From NCBI GenBank assembly GCA_963666485.2, contig CAXXUO010000002.1, positions 256,001-320,000 of the forward strand: a DNA stretch of 64,000 bases, written 5' to 3'. The translations under genes and the position numbers were made by a program. A model generated the notes under the pieces. The model had not been told where the DNA came from and ran no database searches. It saw nothing but the letters and a program-made list of their open reading frames with translations. Source of the DNA: Syntrophorhabdaceae bacterium (GTDB lineage Bacteria; Desulfobacterota; Syntrophorhabdia; Syntrophorhabdales; Syntrophorhabdaceae). Below, one piece after another: positions 11,329 to 21,936 of this stretch. Every line of letters starts with the position of its first letter. Within the stretch, counting starts at the first letter, position 1.

Positions 11329-11510
11329 CGTCATTCCCGCGAAATGGGAATCTAGTGTCTTTATCTATTTAATCTTTTATAGGTTTATAATATTGACCTT
11401 TTTCTGTAAGGCACCCTGCCGCTGATCTACCACACAAGATGCATGCACGTTTCCAGCATTACCAAAAAAATAACTTAAAGACACTGGATTCCCGCTTCGC
11501 GGGAATGACG
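11329..11510. repeat. Palindromic MITE/REP-like element, family A, copy 2
   Basis: Arms at 11329-11355 and 11484-11510. Interior GCTGATCTACCA..CAAGATG..TGCAC.TTTCCAG is shared with 398-575. Flanked by TAATAGG-type (11286-11316) and TTACCCA-type (11535-11597) heptamer arrays. Confidence 0.85.
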
Positions 11511-11600
11511 GAAGGTCTCGTTGCACTTTCCCTCACCCATTACCCATTACCTCTTACCCATTACCTATTACACATTATCTATTACACATTACCTATTTTT

Positions 11601-12119
11601 TTACCATACCCCGCCGGGATATCCCCACCATATCGGCCCCGGGTACGGAGGCGGATAATAGTAGTACACAGCTGCCGGCCTCCTGGGCTCGAGGTAGATC
11701 TGCACGATCCTGAATACAGGAAAGACGTATTCCATCTCGTCGACCTTTCCCGCCATTATACCCGTGAAGGTGCCTGCGATCGTGACCCTGCGGTTCTTCT
11801 GATAGATGAGGGGATCGAGGACGCCCATCTCCCGGGGGTAAAGGGCGAGAAAACGTTGACTGGACAGCGGGGTGTCCTGCGGGTATCCAAAGCTGTCCAC
11901 CGGGACGAAAAGGGCCTCTATCTCGGAGCCTTCCGGCTTCAATGTCGTGCGGGCGATCAGACCGCCGAGGATGAACAACTGGCCACGGTACATGTCCGGG
12001 TTTTGGACAAGCGACGGGAGGGATGGATTTTTGGTTGCCTGCTGCATGTAGTCCGGGCGTATGGCCGACGTACACGCAACAAGGCTGAGAACCAAGAGCG
12101 CCACGGCGATGAGCTTCAC
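11601..12119 (-). CDS. Slp family outer-membrane lipoprotein
   Basis: Lipobox LVAC, GGLI, RFLA, LDPLIYQKNRRVTIAG, and a Tyr/Pro/Trp-rich tail. Confidence 0.85.
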   Translation of the reverse strand: MKLIAVALLVLSLVACTSAIRPDYMQQATKNPSLPSLVQNPDMYRGQLFILGGLIARTTLKPEGSEIEALFVPVDSFGYPQDTPLSSQRFLALYPREMGVLDPLIYQKNRRVTIAGTFTGIMAGKVDEMEYVFPVFRIVQIYLEPRRPAAVYYYYPPPYPGPIWWGYPGGVW

Positions 12120-12176
12120 GGGTCATCCTCCTTCACATAGTTTAACATACGACCAGGAAGACTAATGTGCAAGAAG

Positions 12177-15100
12177 CTATTTTCCGGTTACTTCATCACC
12201 CCCGGCATGATCTGCTGAAACCCCATCGCCCCCTCCCGGCTGCTGGCTCACCTTGAAGATGTAGGGGACCGTTGTCACAGGGTCCTTGCCGGGCTGCGTG
12301 ATGTGGACGATGGCCTTGTCGGGGAACTTGACCGGCTGCCCCTTCGGGACCAGGTATTTCGCACCGAGCTCGCGGGGACCCCCCGTCGCCTTGTCGAAAC
12401 CTAAAGCCTGCCATGCGGAGCCCTCGCCGCCGGGGCCAAAGACACTCAAGGGCATGGTGCCGGACTTCGACCAGCCGCCGCTCGTGTGGCTCGTCTGCCG
12501 GTTGTTGACGTACGTGGTCCTCGACCAGCTCACCGAGAGCTGCCACTTCCCCCAGAGCTGGTAGACGACGTACTCGCTGGGGAGTATCGTGGTGCAGTCA
12601 TCGTCCCTGTGGAGGGTCATGCTGTGGATCGTGGGCTTGCCGTCCCCGTCCTTGATGCCCGCGGCAAGGAGGAAGCCCTCCTCCGTCTGCTTTCCTGCTA
12701 TGGATATGGATGTATTGGATGGCGCGTCGCTGAAGGCCTGCATGTTCTCGAACGGGTTCCTGCCAAGGGGCGGGCTGTCGGAGCCGGGCCCCATGCTCCC
12801 CGGGGAAGAGTCCCTGCCTCCCCCGAAAAAGCCCCCGAGGACGCCGCCGAGGACGTTCTTTGCCACATCGGCTGCCGTACCGGATGCACTGCTGCCGTAC
12901 TTGGACTGGGGGCCGATGATGACGGGCTGGAAGGGGGTGGTGGGACATTCCCCCGGCGGCTGGGAAGGAACACCTGAACAGGCATCTTCACATCTTTTAA
13001 GTTCTTTTTCCAGCGCTATCCTCTTTGTCCTCAAAGCCCGGATCTCTTTTGACAGTACATTGAAATCGATAACGGACGCGGTGTCGTCCTGGTATGCCTT
13101 CTGCTTTGCCTTGATCTCCTCCACGACAGCGGTCAATCTCTGTAATTCCTGTTCGCAGGGCGGGCACGTCCGTACCGGGGCGGATGGTTCAGGCCATAAT
13201 GGGGGTACCGGGTATAGGTCCGGGAAGTCCGGGATCGGGTTTCTGTTCCGCCGGGAAGCGCTGGTTTCGGCACCGGGTCAGCCTGTCCGGGGCCCGGTCC
13301 TGCCTTCGGCGGTGCCGGCTCCGGTGTGTGGGCACCTTCGGAGGGGTGGCTTTGCGGCTGCGGCCCTGTCTTGGGAATGGAAAGCCCGGTCTTTGGCGGG
13401 ATCGCCTGCGGTCCGGGAGTTGCCGGTTTCGGCGTCGTTCCGGCCTGGGGTTTCGGAAGCGGTTCGCGGGGTACCTGCTCGGGGCCCGGTCCTGCCTTGG
13501 GAGGCACTGGTTCGGGGGCGGGCACTTTCGGAGGGGTGCTTTGCGGCGCGGGCATCTGCCCGGCCGGAGGTTCCGCCTTTGGTACCTGCGGTTCGGGGGC
13601 CCGCGGAACGGGAGCGGGTATTCCCGAGCATTTTTTCTTCACATAACTTGAGGTCCCTTTCCCGTATCCTTCGCTTCTCCTGCAACCCGGCGACCTCGGC
13701 CTTCAGGGTGTTCCATTCCCTGAGAGATTGCGATTCATACTGCTTTTTCTGCTTCGCAGCGATCTCGTTCACAAGGGCGGTCAACCGCTCCAATTCCGGT
13801 GTACAGGGCGGGCACGTACGGGCCGGAGGGGGGACTATTGACGGCGGCGGTTCACACGCGGTTTCGCACTCCTTCAGTTCCGCCCTGTCCTTGGCTTCGA
13901 CTGCCTTTAAGTTCTCGAGGTAGGATGCCGTATCGGCGATGTCTTTTTGAATATCTCGAATTTCTTGCCGGGATTCCCTGATGTCCGATTCAAGCAGGCC
14001 TGCGGATTGCGGTCCCGGGTCTTTGCCGTCCGTGAGATATGTGTACCATGCCTCTTCCGCACGCAGTTCGGCCCTCAATTTTTCCTGTATGCTCTGGTAG
14101 TATTCTATCTTAAGCAGGGTCCTTTTGAGTCTCTCGGCTTTCTCTATGCAGGGCGGACACGTGGTTTTCACAGGGCCCGGGACCACCGGCGGCTCAGGTT
14201 TCGCGGGCCTTGGCCTCACGGGTTTTTGCGGCGGTGTGATCGACGGGGGCCCGTCCGTGCACGAAGCCTCGCATTTCTTAAGTTCAGCCGCCAATTTTTC
14301 CTCTTTCTGCCTGAGTCTCGACAATTTTTCTTCTGTGTAGCGGATGTCGTCTTGTATCTCTTTAAGGTTGTTTTTAGATTCTTTGACCTCACCTTTCATA
14401 ATTACCCCAAGCATAAGATCGCCGGGTTTGCCCTTCGTGAGATGATCAAGCCATGCTTCTTCCAGGCGCATCTCGGCCCGGAATTCGTCGACCAATTTTT
14501 CGTTGTACTCTATGTCGAGCCGGATATCGGCAAGCAGCTGCGCCATTTCTTTGCAGGGCGGGCATGACGTTTTCGGCTGGACAGGCGTCACCGGGGGCTT
14601 TGGTTTGGGCGGCCTCGGCCGCTCGGGTTTGGGGGGAGCAGTTTCAGGCCCGGGAATGGCCGGGGGCATTGCCGCGGGTTTTTCCTGGCATTTTTTCTCG
14701 CATTCCTTCAGTTTTTTTTCTGCGTCGTCTTTTATTTTTTTGTAGCGGGCAACTTCTTTATCCACGTCCGGTTTGCGCTTCAATCTCTTTTTGTATACGT
14801 CTATTTTTTTCCGGGCTGTGCTTATCTCATAGTCATAATCATATAATGCCGCGCCTGCACCCGCTGCCTTTTTATACATTTCCAGGTCATTCAGCCGCTT
14901 GTACTCGGCATCCATCTGGCGTTTGTATTCTTCCAGTTCCTCTAAGTCCTTCAAGGCCTCGTTAAGCCGGGACGTCGCGGCCTTCAGATCCTCTGCTTCT
15001 GTCCTGCAGGCGGGACACGTGGTCAATGGCGGAGAATCCGGTTTCCCGGGAGGATCTCCCGGCTTCGATGGCGGAACGCCCGGGCTGCACTGTTTCTCGC

Positions 15101-15923
15101 ATTCTTTGAGGTCCTTCACCAGTTTTGCCGCTGCCTTTTCAAGGTCCGCCTTTTTTGCCTTGTTTTCTTCAAGCGCTACCTTATCTGCGTACAGTTCCCG
15201 TTCGAGCCGCATGATAGTTGTTGTCATCTCTTCCAGGGCGAACCGGTACCAGCCTCCCTCTTTGTCAACCCTTTGCGAATAGAGCCCGGCCATGCTCAGG
15301 TGGTTCGTCATCCTCACTTCCTGGTTCGTAATGGCCTTCGTGACTATGTTTATCTCTTTTTCGAGGAATGCTATTTCCCGTGCGGCGATCTGCATCTCCC
15401 TCTTCGTTGTGTCAATATCCGCTGCGATGTTCCGGCAGCGCGGGCATGTGACCGTCGGTTTCAGAGGGGGCAGCGGACCTTTTCTCTCCTTGCAATACTC
15501 CTCGCATGTCTTCAGGTCCCACTCGGCAGATTCTTTGTCAAAATCGAGTTGATTCAGGCGTCTCCTCAAGCGGGCGGCTTCGGCCTCTTTCGCCTTGATC
15601 TTATCAACTTTTTCTTTCAGTTCTTTAATCTCTTTATCCAGCCGGGCATCGTCGATCCCCGGATAATTTTTTCTCTGCTCCTGCCAGATCTTGAGCTTGC
15701 CTTCTTCAACCATGAGGGGTGAAGCCGACAGTTCCGCCTCCAGGGCCTGCAGCTGAGTCATGGTATTATCCCGGTTCTCCGAGATATCCTTGAGAAGCTC
15801 AACAAATTTCTGGCATTCGGGACAGTCGGTCCGGGAAGGTATATCGGGAAAAGCCACCAGGGGAAAAACCAAAACGAACATGAAAGAAAACATAATGGCA
15901 CGATTCAAGAACCGGTCAAACAT
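12177..15923 (-). pseudogene. Large secreted protein with seven CPxC-coiled-coil-CExxC modules and Pro-rich linkers; apparently frameshifted (sequencing error or pseudogene)
   Basis: Signal-peptide-like N-terminus from ATG 15923. The ORFs 13278-15965, 13133-13642 and 12177-13136 carry consecutive parts of one repeat pattern. Removing one base each near 13631-13636, 13253-13255 and 13194-13195 restores a single frame of about 1247 aa. Confidence 0.7.
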
Positions 15924-16055
15924 GGTCGCCTCGCTTTCGATCAAATTGCGGTTGATAAGCGCCATGGTAGCACATAATCAAAAAAATGCACATCAGGAAA
16001 AAACACTTTTTCGATGGGGTGGTTAAATTATCGAGATATTCCCGGACGGGGGCCT

Positions 16056-17372
16056 TTATCCAACTTCGGGGCGGCGCGGCGTGATGTCGGAGCCCAGGTA
16101 AAATTGCCGGATAGGCCGGTTGAATGCAAAACCGATCGCCAGCAGTGCGCATATCACAAAAATAAAGGAAAAAAGCATTGCGATGTTCTTCCCGGTAAGG
16201 TCGATAATGATGCCGCCCAATACGAAGGACAACGGGGCGAGGCCGCCGTTGATCGAATCCAGGGTCCCGAAAACCCTGCCCCGTAAGTTCTCGGGGATCA
16301 CCTTCTGTTTGAGGGATGTATTGATGAGCCGGGAGATGGCCATGCACCCGGAGAGGAGCGACAGGAGCAAAAAAACGGACACGACGCCTGTTGTCAGCGA
16401 AAGGAGAAGGAACAAAAGTGCTTCAGCGAAAAATATCGCGCATATCACGATATAATTCTGTTTTTCCGTCGTGTTGAACTGGCCGAAAATGAAATACGCC
16501 GCAATGGAGCTCAAGGTGAGCAGGCTCAGCAAATAACCGTAGTAGGTGCTTTTCAGGTGAAGTATATCCTCGACCAGGAAAGGCAGGGAGAGCATGACCA
16601 TCGGAAAGAGGAGGTTAGATAAAGCATAGATGATCGTCTGGTTCCTGAGCCCCCTGTTCGCCCAGATGAAAACGAAACCCTCCTTCGTTTCCCCGAGAAA
16701 ACGCCTGTAAGAGAACTGCGCCCCGTTCGGCGGCGGACCGTGTTCGATCTTTATGAACAGGCTCGCGATGGCCGCGGCGAGGTACGATATGCCGTTGATA
16801 AGAAATGCCAGTGCGCCGCCCAGGAATGTAAAGAATATGCCGCCAAGCGCGTTGCCCGCCATCGCCAGGACGCCTGACGAACCCTGGAATAGCGCGTTGC
16901 CCTTCTGGATCTTTTCCTTCGTGATTATTTCGGGGACGATGGAGTACAGCGCCGAGTTAAAAGCGGAATCAATGATACCCACGAGCATCGTCACAAAAAA
17001 TACAGCATAGACGGTCACCGGGAAAGGAGCGAGGCGAAAACCGGCTATAGCACCATCAAACAGTGTGAGACGGGTGAAACAGTTCAGGCCGGCGACAAAC
17101 AGGAGGACCATGAGCACGCCGCGCAAAAGATCACACCACACGATCACCTTTTTCCTGCTCGACCTGTCAACGAGGGTACCGGCAAACGGCCCGAGCAAAA
17201 CCCACGGCAGGAACGCAAGCAGTTCAACGATGCCGATAATGGTTGCGGAACCGGTCAACTGCTTCAGGTACAGGACAAGGACGACCGAATAGAGTGCGCT
17301 GCCGGTAAAAGACAGGCATTGCCCGGCAAAGACCAGGGTAAAGTTCCTGTTGAACAATCTATAAGAGGTCAT
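16056..17372 (-). CDS. MFS transporter (macrolide-efflux/DHA3-like), putative peptide exporter
   Basis: NRNFTLVFAG, GTLVDRSSRKKV motif A, LRGRVFG, about 12 TM segments. Confidence 0.88.
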   Translation of the reverse strand: MTSYRLFNRNFTLVFAGQCLSFTGSALYSVVLVLYLKQLTGSATIIGIVELLAFLPWVLLGPFAGTLVDRSSRKKVIVWCDLLRGVLMVLLFVAGLNCFTRLTLFDGAIAGFRLAPFPVTVYAVFFVTMLVGIIDSAFNSALYSIVPEIITKEKIQKGNALFQGSSGVLAMAGNALGGIFFTFLGGALAFLINGISYLAAAIASLFIKIEHGPPPNGAQFSYRRFLGETKEGFVFIWANRGLRNQTIIYALSNLLFPMVMLSLPFLVEDILHLKSTYYGYLLSLLTLSSIAAYFIFGQFNTTEKQNYIVICAIFFAEALLFLLLSLTTGVVSVFLLLSLLSGCMAISRLINTSLKQKVIPENLRGRVFGTLDSINGGLAPLSFVLGGIIIDLTGKNIAMLFSFIFVICALLAIGFAFNRPIRQFYLGSDITPRRPEVG

Positions 17373-17423
17373 GATCTCTTTTCGAGGCAGTGCCCCGGCA
17401 GTCCCGCGGGGGACAACGGGCTT

Positions 17424-18608
17424 TTACATCTGCCGGGCCCGTGTACCGCATGACTTGGGAACATCGCCGGGATACGCTGTCCTGTGCGCCAGGAACCTCC
17501 TGGCTATGAGCTCCGCGATCTCCCTGTTCTCATCCATCAGTCTGCGCAGGTGCACCTGTGCGTTGCAGAAAGATTCCATAACGTCGGTGTCGGTCACGGG
17601 CTGGAGGGCACAATATTCCCCGCAGATGGGAAAAGCCGGACAGTCCTTGCATTTTTGATCGTAATACGAATTCGGCGCCTCGCATTGCCCGATCACCTTC
17701 ATGGCTCCGTCCATGACTGAAGGCAGGTCCTCCGCCTTCGCGATAGGACCGGTGACACCGGTAAAGAAACTGCAGGGATAGACGAGCCCGTCGAGGTCCA
17801 CGTATGCGGACCACAGTCCGGCCATGCATTTTTGCGGGCGCGGCGCCGGGTTATAGCTCCGGCCGCAAATGACGTTGTTATAATAAAAGGCGAATTTGTT
17901 GAGCCCGACATTGTCCCGCGTGGCGAAATCAAACTGGGAAGCCAGGAACGCCGCCTCGAACTCGGCCTCGGCGCGCAGCGACGGCGGGATCTGCGACACC
18001 GTATGTCCCCTGCCCTGGCTTGAGACACAGTTCACGCGATAGAACCGGACACCATGGCGGGCAAAAAACTCCACGGTGGACGGCAGGGTCTTGAGGGACT
18101 CCACCGTTCCCACGACAAGCGCCGTAACAGGGAACCCGTTCTCGAACAACGTAACGATGTTGTCCCTTCGCCTCATCGATGATATCTTCGGATCGTCGAG
18201 TTCCCCGTCGTAATGGACGGAGAAATGAACATCGTGCTTTTTGAAGAGTTCGATTACCGCCGGGTTCAGGATGGAAATATTGGTCTGAATTGAATACTCG
18301 AGTGTTTTCCCCGATCCATCGAGGTACGGGTCAACGATACCGAAAAACGTTTCATACCAGTCAGCCCGGGCCAGCAGGGGCTCGCCCCCGGAGAAGACCA
18401 TTCCCATATCGGCGGTACTGAAGTCGAGAAGTTTTATGAGTGTTTCGGCGGTCTTCTCAGGATCGACAATTGTCGTCCGCTCTCCCGGCGGCGACGCGGT
18501 AACATTGCAGGCATCCTGAAAGCAGTAGTCGCAGGAAAGGTTGCAGGCCGTGGTCAACTGAAATGTCACGCCCCGAAGATCGCTGAAGATGGGAGATTCT
18601 ATTGTCAT
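17424..18608 (-). CDS. Radical SAM/SPASM domain protein (anSME-like peptide maturase)
   Basis: CNLSCDYC, FSGGEPLL, IQTN; SPASM motifs CMAG...DGLVYPC...CKDCPAFPICGEYC...C. Confidence 0.9.
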   Translation of the reverse strand: MTIESPIFSDLRGVTFQLTTACNLSCDYCFQDACNVTASPPGERTTIVDPEKTAETLIKLLDFSTADMGMVFSGGEPLLARADWYETFFGIVDPYLDGSGKTLEYSIQTNISILNPAVIELFKKHDVHFSVHYDGELDDPKISSMRRRDNIVTLFENGFPVTALVVGTVESLKTLPSTVEFFARHGVRFYRVNCVSSQGRGHTVSQIPPSLRAEAEFEAAFLASQFDFATRDNVGLNKFAFYYNNVICGRSYNPAPRPQKCMAGLWSAYVDLDGLVYPCSFFTGVTGPIAKAEDLPSVMDGAMKVIGQCEAPNSYYDQKCKDCPAFPICGEYCALQPVTDTDVMESFCNAQVHLRRLMDENREIAELIARRFLAHRTAYPGDVPKSCGTRARQM

Positions 18609-18807
18609 TTACGTATCCTTGAGAATTCTTGCATGGGACCGGCGATCTGCCCGGACAAGCCCGCCGGGCGTAAAACCGGGCTGTGTGGTCAAATTTTGAG
18701 GCACAGTACCGTAACCGGCATTCGGATATGAGTCCCGGACGCTTAAAACAGCCGCCATGGATAATTTCTTCAAGGCCGCGGCGATAACGCAGCGGTGCAT
18801 GAGGAGA

Positions 18808-19008
18808 TTATCTGTTCGGGCAATAATTAGAATAAATGCAGCAGCACCCGCAGTCGTCTTCTTCCGGCAGGGGGGAGATCGATGCGCGCATTGTGCCCAG
18901 CATTTCGTTGATTGTCTCTCTCGATGAGCTCAGGTCAAGAGCTACAAATTCCTCGGCTAAATGTTCGGGGACATCATAGAACCGGCCACTTCTGTTCATT
19001 AGCAGCAT
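18808..19008 (-). CDS. Putative RiPP precursor peptide (66 aa, core DDCGCCCIYSNYCPNR)
   Basis: RBS AGGAG 7 nt before ATG. Acidic leader and Cys/Tyr-rich C-terminus; lies between two radical SAM genes on the same strand. Confidence 0.75.
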   Translation of the reverse strand: MLLMNRSGRFYDVPEHLAEEFVALDLSSSRETINEMLGTMRASISPLPEEDDCGCCCIYSNYCPNR

Positions 19009-19118
19009 GATTAACTCCTGTACAACCTGTATTTGTGATAACTGCTGGGCAAATTGTATAACAACAATCCGGAAGATTGCAAGGCAATAAGCAAGGCTAA
19101 AACACGGGTATCGTTCGG

Positions 19119-20285
19119 TTAATTAGCGATATAATTATATACTTCTAATACATTCTTTGGTGAGTCCTGCTTGACGGCCTCCATATTGTCCCCCCCCTTG
19201 ACCAGGAGGTCAAAGAACATCTTTTCGATGCCCGTGAATATGAAGCACGTATCGATATCCTCCCTGTTGAGGACCATGGTCTTCGCGGCGTCGGAGTACA
19301 TAAGCCATTTCTGATCGTCGGCCTGAGGTTTTATACCGGTTTTCAGGGTGAGCGGCTGCAATCTCGATATGAAGTTATTCAGGCATCCGCCAAAGCAGGA
19401 TAACCTGAAATACCTGCACGACGAGCACGGCTCAATGGTGATGTTGTTTTCAAGGAGTTTGTGGAGCCTCATAAAATATGCCTGGAAATCCTGGCCGGTC
19501 GTGTACCGGGAGAACGGGACCTGGAAGCTTGCCGTGCCGAAACAGCTGCTCACCATCTTCCCCGGCATGTAATCCGAAGGGGGCGCGCAGGACGTCAGCA
19601 TGTCTTTCCCGAAATTCCTTTTCCACAGGGCGATGGTGGCGTCGTCGAGCTGGCACAGGGGAATGCTCGTGCAGTCTTCCGCCAGGTTAATGCCAGCTTT
19701 GAACAACTTCCGGGCAACCCGTTGCAGGTCCTCGTTGAACTTCTTCTTCTCTTCAGTGAATTCGATAAATTTATTGCTCCGCTCGCAATCGGGCGAGGCG
19801 ATGCCAAACCTGAGAAAGCGTTTCAAATTGTATCGATCTATCGCCTCTATCCATGTATCGATCTCTTCGGATGTAATGTCCCCGGTGTAGGTCACCCCGA
19901 GTGTGACATATTTGCCCAGGGTCTTCAAAAAATAGTCCAGGTCTGCCTCCGGCCGGGTTGAAAATTTCCTGGCCGCATAATTGACGACATACCTCGCGGA
20001 GGAAAATTGCGTGAGCCGCTCCGTTATTTCCCTGTCGACAAACCCGTGCGTCAGGACGAAGAAATTGTTGAACAACCTGTCCGCCTCGGTCATCAGCGCG
20101 ATAAAGTCGGGGTGCAGGGTCGGTTCTCCGCCGAAGATGCGTATGAACGAATACCCGGAGCTTTTCAAGAATTGCAGGATTTCCTTGAATTCATCGACCC
20201 CCATACAGGAGGTGCTGTCCGAAAACGGTTTTGCAAAACAATAGTCGCAGTTGCAGTTGCATTGATAATTGATTATGACGTTCAA
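19119..20285 (-). CDS. Radical SAM protein with SPASM/twitch-like Cys cluster and C-terminal extension
   Basis: RBS AAAGGA then TTG. CNCNCDYC, GGEPTLHPDF, SCAP...SSCF, PCSSCRYFRLSCFGGC. Confidence 0.88.
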   Translation of the reverse strand: MNVIINYQCNCNCDYCFAKPFSDSTSCMGVDEFKEILQFLKSSGYSFIRIFGGEPTLHPDFIALMTEADRLFNNFFVLTHGFVDREITERLTQFSSARYVVNYAARKFSTRPEADLDYFLKTLGKYVTLGVTYTGDITSEEIDTWIEAIDRYNLKRFLRFGIASPDCERSNKFIEFTEEKKKFNEDLQRVARKLFKAGINLAEDCTSIPLCQLDDATIALWKRNFGKDMLTSCAPPSDYMPGKMVSSCFGTASFQVPFSRYTTGQDFQAYFMRLHKLLENNITIEPCSSCRYFRLSCFGGCLNNFISRLQPLTLKTGIKPQADDQKWLMYSDAAKTMVLNREDIDTCFIFTGIEKMFFDLLVKGGDNMEAVKQDSPKNVLEVYNYIAN

Positions 20286-20514
20286 AACGATTTCCTTTCG
20301 TGCGCCGGTTCACATATGCTGCCATTTATGTACCATTCATCGCCGCTGCCGGGCAAGGGCAATAACGTGAAAACCCTGGATGTGAATTGTTCGTCGGGAC
20401 CGTCGGGCCTTTCGGCTCCGGCCGCGTGTATTATATTACTCGTAGGAAAAAGGTCATTTTTCCGGGCCTTGTTCCGGCAATACATTGCTTCAAAAAGATA
20501 AGGTCGTGATAAGC

Positions 20515-21936
20515 ATGTTCGATGGACCTGAAGGAACCGTGAACGACGGCCTGAGGCTTGAAGGCGACAGCATGGGAAAGGTCTGGGTACCGGCCGACCG
20601 CCTGTGGGGGGCCGGCACCCAGCGCGCCCTCAAGCACTTCAGGATCGGCACCGACGTAAACCCCCCGGAGCTCATCAGGGCCCTCGTCATCGTGAAAGAG
20701 GCTTCGGCCATGGCCAACCGGGAATTGCTCAAGCTTGACGAAGAACGGGCGAGCGCCATCATAGAGGCCGCCCGCGAAGCTGTCTCGGGCAAACTGGACG
20801 GCCATTTCCCTTTGCCCGTCTGGCTGAGCGGAAGCGGCACGCAATTGAATATGAATGTCAACGAGGTCCTTGCGAACCGGGCCATAGAACTGATGGGCGG
20901 GATCAAAGGGACCAGGTCGCCGGTCCATCCCAACGATCATGTCAACATGTCGCAGTCGACGAACGATGTCTTCCCGACGGCCATGAACATTGCGGCCCTG
21001 ACCGCTATCCGGGACCATCTCGGACCGGCTGTCCGGAAACTGGCGGACGGCCTTGAAGAAAAGGCGAAGGCATGGGCCGGCATCACGAAGATCGGCAGGA
21101 CGCACCTCATGGATGCGGTGCCGCTCACCCTGGGCCAGGAGTTCTCCGGGTACGCCGCCATGATCGGCGACGATCTCGCGAGGCTCGACGCCGTACTTCC
21201 CGGACTTTATCACCTTGCCATCGGCGGTACGGCAGTGGGTACCGGCATAACAGCGGAAAAGGGGTTCGGGGACGCAGCCGTGCGCCATATTGCCGGGATC
21301 ACGGGCCTTCCGGTTTCCCCTGCTCCGAACAGGTTTGCCGTGCAGGGCGCCCACGATGCGATGGTCATGGTGAGTGCTGCCCTGAAAGGCATGGCCGTTT
21401 CCCTTTTCAAGATAGCCAACGACATCCGGCTTCTCGCCTCCGGGCCCGACGCGGGTATCCGCGAGCTTATTCTCCCCGCTAACGAACCGGGGTCCTCCAT
21501 CATGCCCGGCAAGGTAAACCCGACCCAATGCGAGGCAATGACCATGGTGGCCGTGCAGGTGATGGGCTATGACCTGGCGGTGGCTTTCGCCGGCGCCGGC
21601 GGCTACCTGGAGATGAACGCATACAAGCCGCTCATTGCATTCAATGTCATCCAATCGATCCGGCTTATCTCGGATGCCTGCAATTCATTCGAGACATTCC
21701 TTGTTGCGGGACTCAAACCGGATAGAAAAAAAATAGATGACTATGTGAATCGCTCACTGATGCTCGTGACGGCCCTCGTACCGGTCATCGGTTACGACAG
21801 GGCCGCCCGGGTGGTTGACCTGGCTGTCGCCGAAGGCCTTACACTCAAGGATGCGGCCCTGAAGCTCGGCTGCATTTCGGCCGAAGAGTTCGATCGCGTT
21901 GTCGATCCTTACAGACTGGCACATGACAACGCGTGA
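20515..21936 (+). CDS. fumC: Class II fumarate hydratase
   Basis: GSGTQLNMNVNEV, HPNDHVNMSQSTND, KIGRTHLMDA, GSSIMPGKVNPTQCE. Confidence 0.95.
   Translation: MFDGPEGTVNDGLRLEGDSMGKVWVPADRLWGAGTQRALKHFRIGTDVNPPELIRALVIVKEASAMANRELLKLDEERASAIIEAAREAVSGKLDGHFPLPVWLSGSGTQLNMNVNEVLANRAIELMGGIKGTRSPVHPNDHVNMSQSTNDVFPTAMNIAALTAIRDHLGPAVRKLADGLEEKAKAWAGITKIGRTHLMDAVPLTLGQEFSGYAAMIGDDLARLDAVLPGLYHLAIGGTAVGTGITAEKGFGDAAVRHIAGITGLPVSPAPNRFAVQGAHDAMVMVSAALKGMAVSLFKIANDIRLLASGPDAGIRELILPANEPGSSIMPGKVNPTQCEAMTMVAVQVMGYDLAVAFAGAGGYLEMNAYKPLIAFNVIQSIRLISDACNSFETFLVAGLKPDRKKIDDYVNRSLMLVTALVPVIGYDRAARVVDLAVAEGLTLKDAALKLGCISAEEFDRVVDPYRLAHDNA

Follow-up and report, generated by a model that had tools for sequence, protein, structure and literature searches.

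The 64,000-nucleotide stretch analyzed here (the window; positions 256001 to 320000 of contig C2 of the source genome, G000, a Syntrophorhabdaceae bacterium) carries a compact gene cluster that appears, from comparative sequence analysis, to represent a conserved radical S-adenosylmethionine (SAM) family of peptides that are made on the ribosome and modified after translation (RiPPs). We did not find this family described; it has an unusual predicted core maturase and, in this genome, a displaced B12-type partner enzyme. Four genes lie on the minus strand between positions 16056 and 20285 (all locus positions are counted within the window), as an original prediction made from the sequence alone had placed them: rSAM1 (19119..20285; 388 aa), an accessory radical SAM/SPASM-type enzyme of one subclade; a precursor peptide (18808..19008; 66 aa) with a conserved N-terminal leader motif and a C-terminal core; rSAM2 (17424..18608; 394 aa), a radical SAM/SPASM enzyme without a RiPP recognition element (RRE) and without a close curated match; and a Mef/EntS/Tap-like major facilitator superfamily (MFS) transporter (16056..17372; 438 aa), which is conserved directly after rSAM2 and is the presumed exporter. 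The cluster very probably encodes a RiPP pathway with rSAM2 as its core maturase.

The assignments of the original prediction were borne out at the level of genes. Both enzymes exceed the Radical_SAM cut-off of Pfam and carry SPASM-type cysteines at the C terminus, the transporter matches MFS_1, and the small peptide has a strong ribosome-binding site, with a Shine-Dalgarno AGGAG (19015..19019, minus strand) 6 nt ahead of the ATG; a G-A-G-G-type site is common to the homologous loci. Positions 11500 to 21000 are covered by one public contig, possibly from the window's own sample, that shows no substitution over this span and is gapped only in a neighboring gene; the cluster itself agrees at every base. 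Ratios of nonsynonymous to synonymous substitution rates (dN/dS) of 0.09 to 0.17 at dS 0.7 to 1.0 indicate purifying selection on the peptide (0.12 against its nearest relative), rSAM2 (0.09), rSAM1 (0.14), the MFS gene (0.16), and the gene for the B12-type enzyme. The four genes of the cluster are real and under purifying selection.

The conserved unit and its distribution

After removal of duplicates, short re-cuts, two loci that proved unrelated (L014 and L050), and a relic locus (L025/L033), 50 loci were reduced to 24 distinct ones, from records labelled Syntrophorhabdus, Syntrophus, Desulfatitalea, Desulfobacterales, and Nitrospirota and from metagenomes. An rSAM2 homolog stands directly behind a homologous peptide in all 22 loci long enough to show it, so the recurrence of a similar precursor beside rSAM2 homologs held without exception. 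The MFS gene follows rSAM2 in 19 of 19 loci, and past it comes a convergent gene for a B12-type radical SAM enzyme (~610 aa) in 16 of the 17 loci that reach that far, L001 being the exception. This comparison shows a conserved putative unit of peptide, rSAM2, MFS, and B12-type radical SAM gene, which travel together. rSAM1 is present in 2/24 loci (2/20 when only loci with at least 1.3 kb upstream are counted) and, in a close form, in 2 of the 69 family genomes, and is on this sampling a subclade add-on. The pairing of rSAM1 with rSAM2, on which the original prediction was built, is therefore not supported as a trait of the family. The second enzyme that the family shares is the B12-type radical SAM enzyme and not rSAM1, and it was invisible to that prediction because its gene lies on another contig in the window's genome.

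Of the 69 family genomes, an identical set of 10 holds the peptide, rSAM2, and the B12 gene, and none of the three was found among the remaining 59; since kin are not independent, this co-occurrence is a pattern and not a test. In wider samples, the system was found in 2 of 401 genomes of its own phylum, 1 of 351 from the order of G458, and 2 (counting true cases) of 351 from the phylum of G459; the negatives in these samples mean not found in the genomes searched, with absence not established. The hosts are syntrophic and sulfate-reducing strict anaerobes, bacteria of anaerobic sludge and sediment. No protease gene is conserved across the loci, in agreement with the original prediction, and a search of the genome for PqqD (PF05402) gave no match; two TldD/PmbA genes are present. 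Nor is any metal-uptake or metal-regulation gene conserved around the loci, so that the earlier suggestion of a possible metal chelator gained no support here.

Precursor, core maturase, and proposed chemistry

A protein search returned 23 homolog clusters of the precursor including the window's own (48 to 100% identity; 48 to 83% for the 22 others). A hidden Markov model (HMM) search of 1.84 billion representatives gave 10 matches: eight short family members, some of them distant, and two long unrelated proteins. The peptide matched no Pfam or NCBIfam family at E 0.1, in keeping with the original view of a RiPP-type cluster whose precursor belongs to no recognized class; six distant members likewise matched no NCBIfam family at E 0.01, and the ESM Atlas yielded only low-recognition, unrelated clusters. 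The leader motif M-L-L-x-N-x-x-G-x-x-Y-D-x-P-E is conserved, the N-terminal half being as conserved as the core, and a variable, acidic linker leads to the conserved tail motif G-C-C-[C/N]-x-aromatic-x-N-[Y/W]-C-P-N. We place the putative core at residues C53 to R66 (18811..18852, minus strand) from conservation across 52 tails. In distant members, D/E-V-E-G-Q stands directly ahead of G-C-C; motifs of this kind mark leader ends, which suggests a core starting at Gly54.

The pattern by which the 52 distinct tails were chosen itself requires the fixed residues; of 41 family proteins, 40 conform to it and the remaining one is frameshifted. Across the tails, C55, C56, N61, an aromatic residue at 62, and P64 are fixed in 52/52 and C63 in 51/52. 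Position 62 is Tyr in 47 and Trp in 5, while position 59 is Tyr in 43, Phe in 5, and Trp, His, Leu, and Val in one each, giving an aromatic residue in 50/52; the motif aromatic59-x-Asn61 is thus found in 50 tails and aromatic62-x-Pro64 in all 52. Cys occupies both positions 53 and 57 in 23 tails, neither position in 28, and just one of the two in a single tail; the rSAM2 tree shows two joint changes, a number too small for statistical testing, and the pair probably forms an optional disulfide. Almost every core has an odd number of cysteines, either 3 or 5. Synonymous codon positions vary at invariant core residues (23 cores), which, together with the dN/dS of 0.12, indicates that selection acts on the peptide as a protein. 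Selenocysteine in the core was considered, given a tRNA-Sec in the genome and a TGA at a Cys position in the relic of genome G020, and rejected, as 23 of 23 intact cores use TGC or TGT. A weak TGA-containing match in G998 falls within a larger gene, in another reading frame, and is due to chance. At one locus (L041:1390-1836), two tandem precursors stand behind an rSAM1 gene, the contig ending within the second.

A database search with rSAM2 found 51 matches at 59 to 94% identity and no other down to E 1e-20 among 3968 candidates, in a search that needs shared words. Its predicted structure is good (pLDDT 81), and the nearest fold is that of the anaerobic sulfatase-maturing enzyme anSME (Z 26.8, root-mean-square deviation [rmsd] 3.6, 346 residues aligned), three units above the next, which agrees with the original description of rSAM2 as anSME-like. 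ChlB (Z 23.6, rmsd 3.9, 332 aligned), CteB (Z 22.8, rmsd 4.0, 317 aligned), and TigE (Z 22.3, rmsd 4.5, 311 aligned) are effectively tied behind it. rSAM2 starts at its own radical SAM domain, with no N-terminal RRE, and aligns end to end with the RRE-less chains of anSME and ChlB. The seven canonical SPASM cysteines (C261, C279, C320, C323, C329, C333, and C348) are invariant in 33 aligned rows, as is an eighth cysteine, C387. Against NCBIfam, the scores in bits over cut-off were PapB 68/340 (top, by a small margin), anSME (TIGR03942) 65/349, DynA 64/450, YhhB 54/445, CcpM 53/500, AmcB 50/425, GrrM/OscB 44/310, FxsB 41/370, XyeB 35/450, and SCIFF maturase 31/425. Neither rSAM1 nor rSAM2 comes near any NCBIfam cut-off, and the SPASM half taken alone found no match among PDB sequences.

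The catalytic site was compared in a six-position scheme set out in the accessible part of PMC10288494, with the rSAM2 positions placed by motif and not on the model. The profile of rSAM2 is F, S, Q, H, S, F, invariant throughout (F30, S73, Q108, and H132 each in 33/33 rows, as is Ser280 after Y-P-C). The same part of that source gives F, F, T, S, H, Q for CteB and Y, T, I, S, K, L for StsB; by alignment, the profile of anSME reads F, Q, Q, S, D, F, and the first four residues of ChlB are Y, H, Q, S. rSAM2 is thus identical to CteB at one of six positions, to StsB at none, and to anSME at three. Gln at position 3 is common to rSAM2, ChlB, and anSME, with Thr in CteB and Ile in StsB, while His132 at position 4 is unlike all four enzymes compared, of which each has Ser. 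As placed by motif, the catalytic site fits neither the thioether-forming nor a known cyclophane-forming profile, and rSAM2 is for this reason a fair candidate for a new cross-link.

Our preferred, though tentative, hypothesis, to which we give slightly less than an even chance, is that rSAM2 forms cyclophane-type (aromatic-to-carbon) rings on aromatic-x-Asn and/or Tyr-Cys-Pro. It is favored by an enzyme without RRE, by a position 59 that takes four aromatic residues ahead of a fixed Asn, and by the aromatic-x-Pro that comes next. Aromatic-X-X motifs, of which the core has two, adjacent, define the triceptides according to the available portions of PMC11499958 and PMC12912966. The triceptide or 3-CyFE enzymes (ChlB, XyeB/XncB, YhhB, HtkB, and MicB) and the dynobactin maturase DynA are, like rSAM2, radical SAM/SPASM proteins of ~375 to 395 aa with no N-terminal RRE (ChlB aligned over residues 5 to 367), and Gln at catalytic-site position 3 is a further likeness. 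In the proposed sequence of events, the ribosome would make the 66-aa precursor from its own ribosome-binding site, and rSAM2 would bind the conserved leader without an RRE, take a hydrogen atom from Asn61 (and/or Pro64), and join that carbon to the aromatic ring two places earlier. This would yield one or two adjacent three-residue cyclophane-type rings, Tyr59-Ser-Asn61 and Tyr62-Cys-Pro64. The B12 enzyme would then tailor the core in trans, most likely by C-methylation, and rSAM1, in this subclade only, may add a further step. The leader would be removed near Gly54 by a housekeeping protease (TldD/PmbA are candidates) or by none, and the MFS transporter would export a small, rigid, Cys-rich peptide.

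Several observations weigh against cyclophane formation. No cyclophane-synthase model gives rSAM2 a score anywhere near its cut-off (DynA, YhhB, AmcB, and XyeB at 64/450, 54/445, 50/425, and 35/450). The enzyme has Ser where ChlB, the only triceptide enzyme compared at these residues, has His before GGE, and of positions 1 to 4 only the Gln matches. ChlB and the thioether-forming CteB are tied as structural neighbors, and two tails have Leu or Val at position 59. Unlike triceptides, the system has a Cys-rich core, Pro as a candidate third ring residue (for which we found no precedent), and a constant B12 radical SAM partner. The roles of C55, C56, and C63 are left unexplained by a cyclophane model, and these residues are the starting point of a less probable but serious alternative, in which rSAM2 builds thioethers (ranthionine or sactionine) that connect C55, C56, and/or C63 with Asn61 or carbons close by, methylation falls to the B12 enzyme, and the aromatic residues serve target binding. 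The near-invariance of these cysteines (52/52, 52/52, and 51/52) suits such a role, and the odd Cys count would leave one thiol over if the rest pair. The seven invariant SPASM cysteines would permit the Aux I site to be open to a substrate thiol, as described in the accessible text of PMC10878394, although the eighth, C387, could fill that site. Ranthi- and sactipeptide systems (PapB, CteB/SCIFF, NxxcB, StsB, and CrpC) share with the present one a Cys-rich core, a fixed Asn at a set distance, a seven-Cys SPASM domain, and anaerobic hosts, and PapB is the top NCBIfam match, if by a small margin. They differ in that rSAM2 lacks an RRE and the genome a stand-alone PqqD, one of which most such pathways use (PMC10288494, available part); in the catalytic-site profile, with one of six residues in common with CteB and none with StsB; in scores far under cut-off (PapB 68/340, SCIFF maturase 31/425); and in a precursor that matches no SCIFF or other model.

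We consider it unlikely that rSAM2 performs some other radical chemistry, such as an anSME-like Cys oxidation or formation of a dehydro residue, and leaves ring formation to the B12 enzyme (a biphenomycin-like Tyr59-Tyr62 aryl coupling, or a C-S bond) or to rSAM1. anSME is the clear top structural match, has the same RRE-less architecture, and has three of the six catalytic-site residues in common, and Tyr-x-x-Tyr occurs in precursors beside rSAM1-like enzymes in three of three cluster types, though only three contexts carry that link. The Asp after Y-P-C in anSME has a catalytic role, and rSAM2 has Ser there; one Aux I cysteine of anSME is also missing, identity is 14 to 16%, the family score is 65/349 bits, and rSAM2 is always beside the peptide and never beside a sulfatase-sized gene in the loci examined. 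Cross-linking of two tyrosine-type rings in RiPPs does have precedent in the B12 radical SAM enzymes PbsB and BipD, as the available parts of PMC12257519 and PMC12707348 report, but 9 of the 52 tails have a residue other than Tyr at position 59, and the biphenomycin ring spans i to i+2 and not i to i+3. Less probable still, the peptide might never be released and might instead serve, after maturation inside the cell, as a cofactor carrier or as a small protein that binds a metal or an Fe-S cluster, with the MFS transporter exporting a by-product. The lack of a conserved protease, an N-terminal half as conserved as the core, and three to five closely spaced core cysteines in strictly anaerobic hosts are consistent with such a protein. 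The layout argues otherwise, since a conserved leader, a variable acidic linker, and a terminal core, with D/E-V-E-G-Q in distant members, are those of a RiPP precursor, as do the patchy distribution (10/69 genomes), the locus with two tandem precursors, and the absence of a conserved metal-handling gene nearby.

The displaced B12-type enzyme and rSAM1

The B12 gene of the window's genome is intact (C1:887758-889593), 49 to 74% identical to its orthologs, and has no precursor beside it. Its best family is TIGR03975, the RiPP B12 radical SAM C-methyltransferases, at 126 to 172 bits in 5/5 proteins scanned, under the cut-off of 281.85; the B12 label comes from NCBIfam matches that cover the N-terminal part, Pfam giving Radical_SAM only. 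The C terminus matches PqqD weakly in 2 of 13 members (best E 0.0066) and other winged-helix families as well. In its length of ~610 aa, N-terminal cobalamin-type region, radical SAM domain, and weak C-terminal winged-helix signal, the protein resembles the RiPP B12 enzymes (the TIGR03975 C-methyltransferases PoyB/PoyC and BotRMT, and the biaryl-coupling PbsB/BipD), and the bip cluster also includes an MFS gene. The present system differs from those in its scores (126 to 172 against 282 bits), in having no MNIO, YcaO, or epimerase partner, and in that the B12 gene is unlinked from the precursor in the window's genome. The accessible part of PMC12931638 states that most of the B12 radical SAM class methylate carbon, and by analogy C-methylation is the most likely step here. 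On the sequence evidence, the B12 enzyme probably acts on the 66-aa precursor.

In genome G020, the B12 gene is likewise unlinked and abuts a cut-down precursor of the 3-Cys type with a stop codon. This relic (L033:8041-8133) has an internal TGA and directly faces the B12 gene, the rSAM2 and MFS genes being missing between them. The displaced B12 copies nest with L008 among the 3-Cys-type loci (support 99/99), the window's rSAM2 falls outside that group (97/97), and an approximately unbiased (AU) test rejects a clade of the window, L001, and L008 (p 1.4e-6; the group was named after the tree was seen). The simplest history would be that a 5-Cys-type cluster with rSAM1 arrived and that rSAM2 and MFS, followed by the precursor, disappeared from an older cluster, of which the B12 gene was kept. 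The low dN/dS of the displaced gene (0.17 between G000 and G020, at dS near 1; rSAM2 0.09, rSAM1 0.14, MFS 0.16) favors action of the B12 enzyme in trans. Other features of the data pull the opposite way: the displaced B12 gene descends from another cluster copy than the window's rSAM2; its low dN/dS may predate the loss, when the older cluster was still whole, and the relic is still recognizable; and the rSAM1-type loci seen past the MFS gene (the window and L001) have no linked B12 gene, so that rSAM1 could replace the B12 enzyme rather than join it.

Three further observations concern B12-type genes or their surroundings. In G022, the B12 gene is in two pieces (L008:10789-12526), through decay or assembly error. 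A second, distant TIGR03975-like B12 gene on C1 of G000 (L080:5114-7960, at ~932 to 935 kb) stands behind two small repeat proteins and is a separate system. Near the displaced B12 gene (L051:11015-18638, also C1) are pentapeptide-repeat genes and a 943-aa gene that resembles VgrG by eye.

rSAM1 has seven other database clusters at 67 to 84% identity, after which identity drops to 27%. Three of these seven are apparently on the same contigs as rSAM2 matches that group with the window's rSAM2 (SH-aLRT 93 to 95), and rSAM1 accordingly seems to belong to a single subclade. Full-length relatives at 25 to 32% identity occur in seven genus-mates, with lasso-peptide clusters around six of the seven (six surroundings examined), and a relative in G459 has a precursor with Tyr-x-Asn repeats and another SPASM enzyme as its neighbors. 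The wider rSAM1 family therefore recurs in RiPP clusters, and in each of the three cluster types the precursor next to the rSAM1-like enzyme carries Tyr-x-x-Tyr (again, three contexts only). The C-terminal extension of rSAM1 (about residues 320 to 388) has a beta-beta-beta-alpha-alpha-alpha look, RRE-like by eye, and could possibly be an RRE, but none of the RRE tests reached significance: from shallow profiles, hhalign gave a probability of 0.06 with the beta3-alpha1 register matched, and neither Pfam nor PDB returned a match. The structure model of rSAM1 was too poor for use (pLDDT 47.5), and the ESM Atlas gave generic radical SAM clusters only. On balance, we lean toward rSAM1 acting on the 66-aa precursor.

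The lasso-peptide clusters with an rSAM1-like gene in six genus-mates (L071 to L076, in G022, G026, G025, G009, G018, and G008; e.g., L073:1450-8718) also hold an ABC transporter, a PqqD-B2 fusion, a lasso cyclase-like gene, a precursor with a Gly-rich ring and a Tyr-Gly-Gly-Tyr loop, and a 520- to 580-aa partner of the rSAM1-like gene for which neither Pfam nor NCBIfam gave a match. Radical SAM tailoring of a lasso peptide would merit separate study. In G459 (L086:7626-11010), the precursor is 125 aa long, has the leader motif R-R-E-A-I-K, and contains many Tyr-x-Asn repeats; behind it come the rSAM1-like gene, the same type of 520- to 580-aa partner, and a SPASM enzyme in which His precedes GGE.

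A more far-reaching combination can be put forward, which we regard as improbable when its parts are taken jointly. rSAM2 would represent a new RRE-less SPASM subfamily (Ser73, His132, Ser280) making a fused bicycle, with an unprecedented Tyr/Trp-to-Pro link beside an aromatic-x-Asn ring; the B12 enzyme would perform non-methylating chemistry on the fixed cysteines, shared in trans after cluster replacement; and rSAM1 would belong to a portable family of Tyr-x-x-Tyr enzymes serving lasso, Tyr-x-Asn-repeat, and present pathways.

Flanking sequence, novelty, and significance

Promoter and terminator scans of the locus were not above chance. A sigma70-like promoter candidate in the gap between rSAM1 and the peptide (19053..19082, minus strand) is weak, with 6 sites found against 3.9 ± 2.0 by chance. 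A palindrome around C-A-A-T-A-T-T-G, possibly a repressor site, overlaps the -35 region (19060 to 19090 in the window, where it is altered) and is also found upstream of L003, L006, L009, L041, and L042. The spacer 3' of the precursor (18609..18807, minus strand) holds a strong hairpin in most homologous loci (z < -2 in 15/19) and not clearly in the window (z -0.59), nor in L001. Beyond the cluster, a long Pro- and Cys-rich repeat protein, apparently secreted, is split into three open reading frames (12177 to 15965, minus strand). Small indels at 12229 to 13631 in one public contig imply that these breaks may be assembly errors, and the protein is absent from the corresponding place in L001.

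By the family tests applied, the predicted proteins fall outside the triceptides, the sacti- and ranthipeptides, anSME, and the curated precursors (SCIFF, mycofactocin, PqqA, and XYE). The Crp system of Methanococcus voltae is not the present family, being in the available part of PMC13692751 an RRE-bearing enzyme acting on a larger protein. Full-text literature searches, whose coverage excluded most subscription journals and their survey supplements, found no description of the motif or cluster, and the article supplements searched held none of the motifs, the supplementary PDF of PMC10288494 probably lying outside coverage. Within the literature searched, the original prediction of an undescribed system thus stands.

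Dedicated MFS export and a patchy distribution suggest an antagonistic or signaling peptide more than a housekeeping cofactor. Our searches found no characterized radical-SAM peptide for syntrophic and sulfate-reducing anaerobes, and the present pathway is compact and testable, with a 66-aa substrate, one 394-aa core enzyme, and two optional tailoring enzymes. The natural variation of the family, which includes 3-Cys as well as 5-Cys cores and Y, F, W, H, L, or V at position 59, supplies a ready-made mutational series. If the simplest history is right, G000 illustrates how a RiPP pathway can come apart, a new cluster having replaced an old one with one old enzyme retained, and mining by gene neighborhood only would miss such a displaced B12 enzyme.

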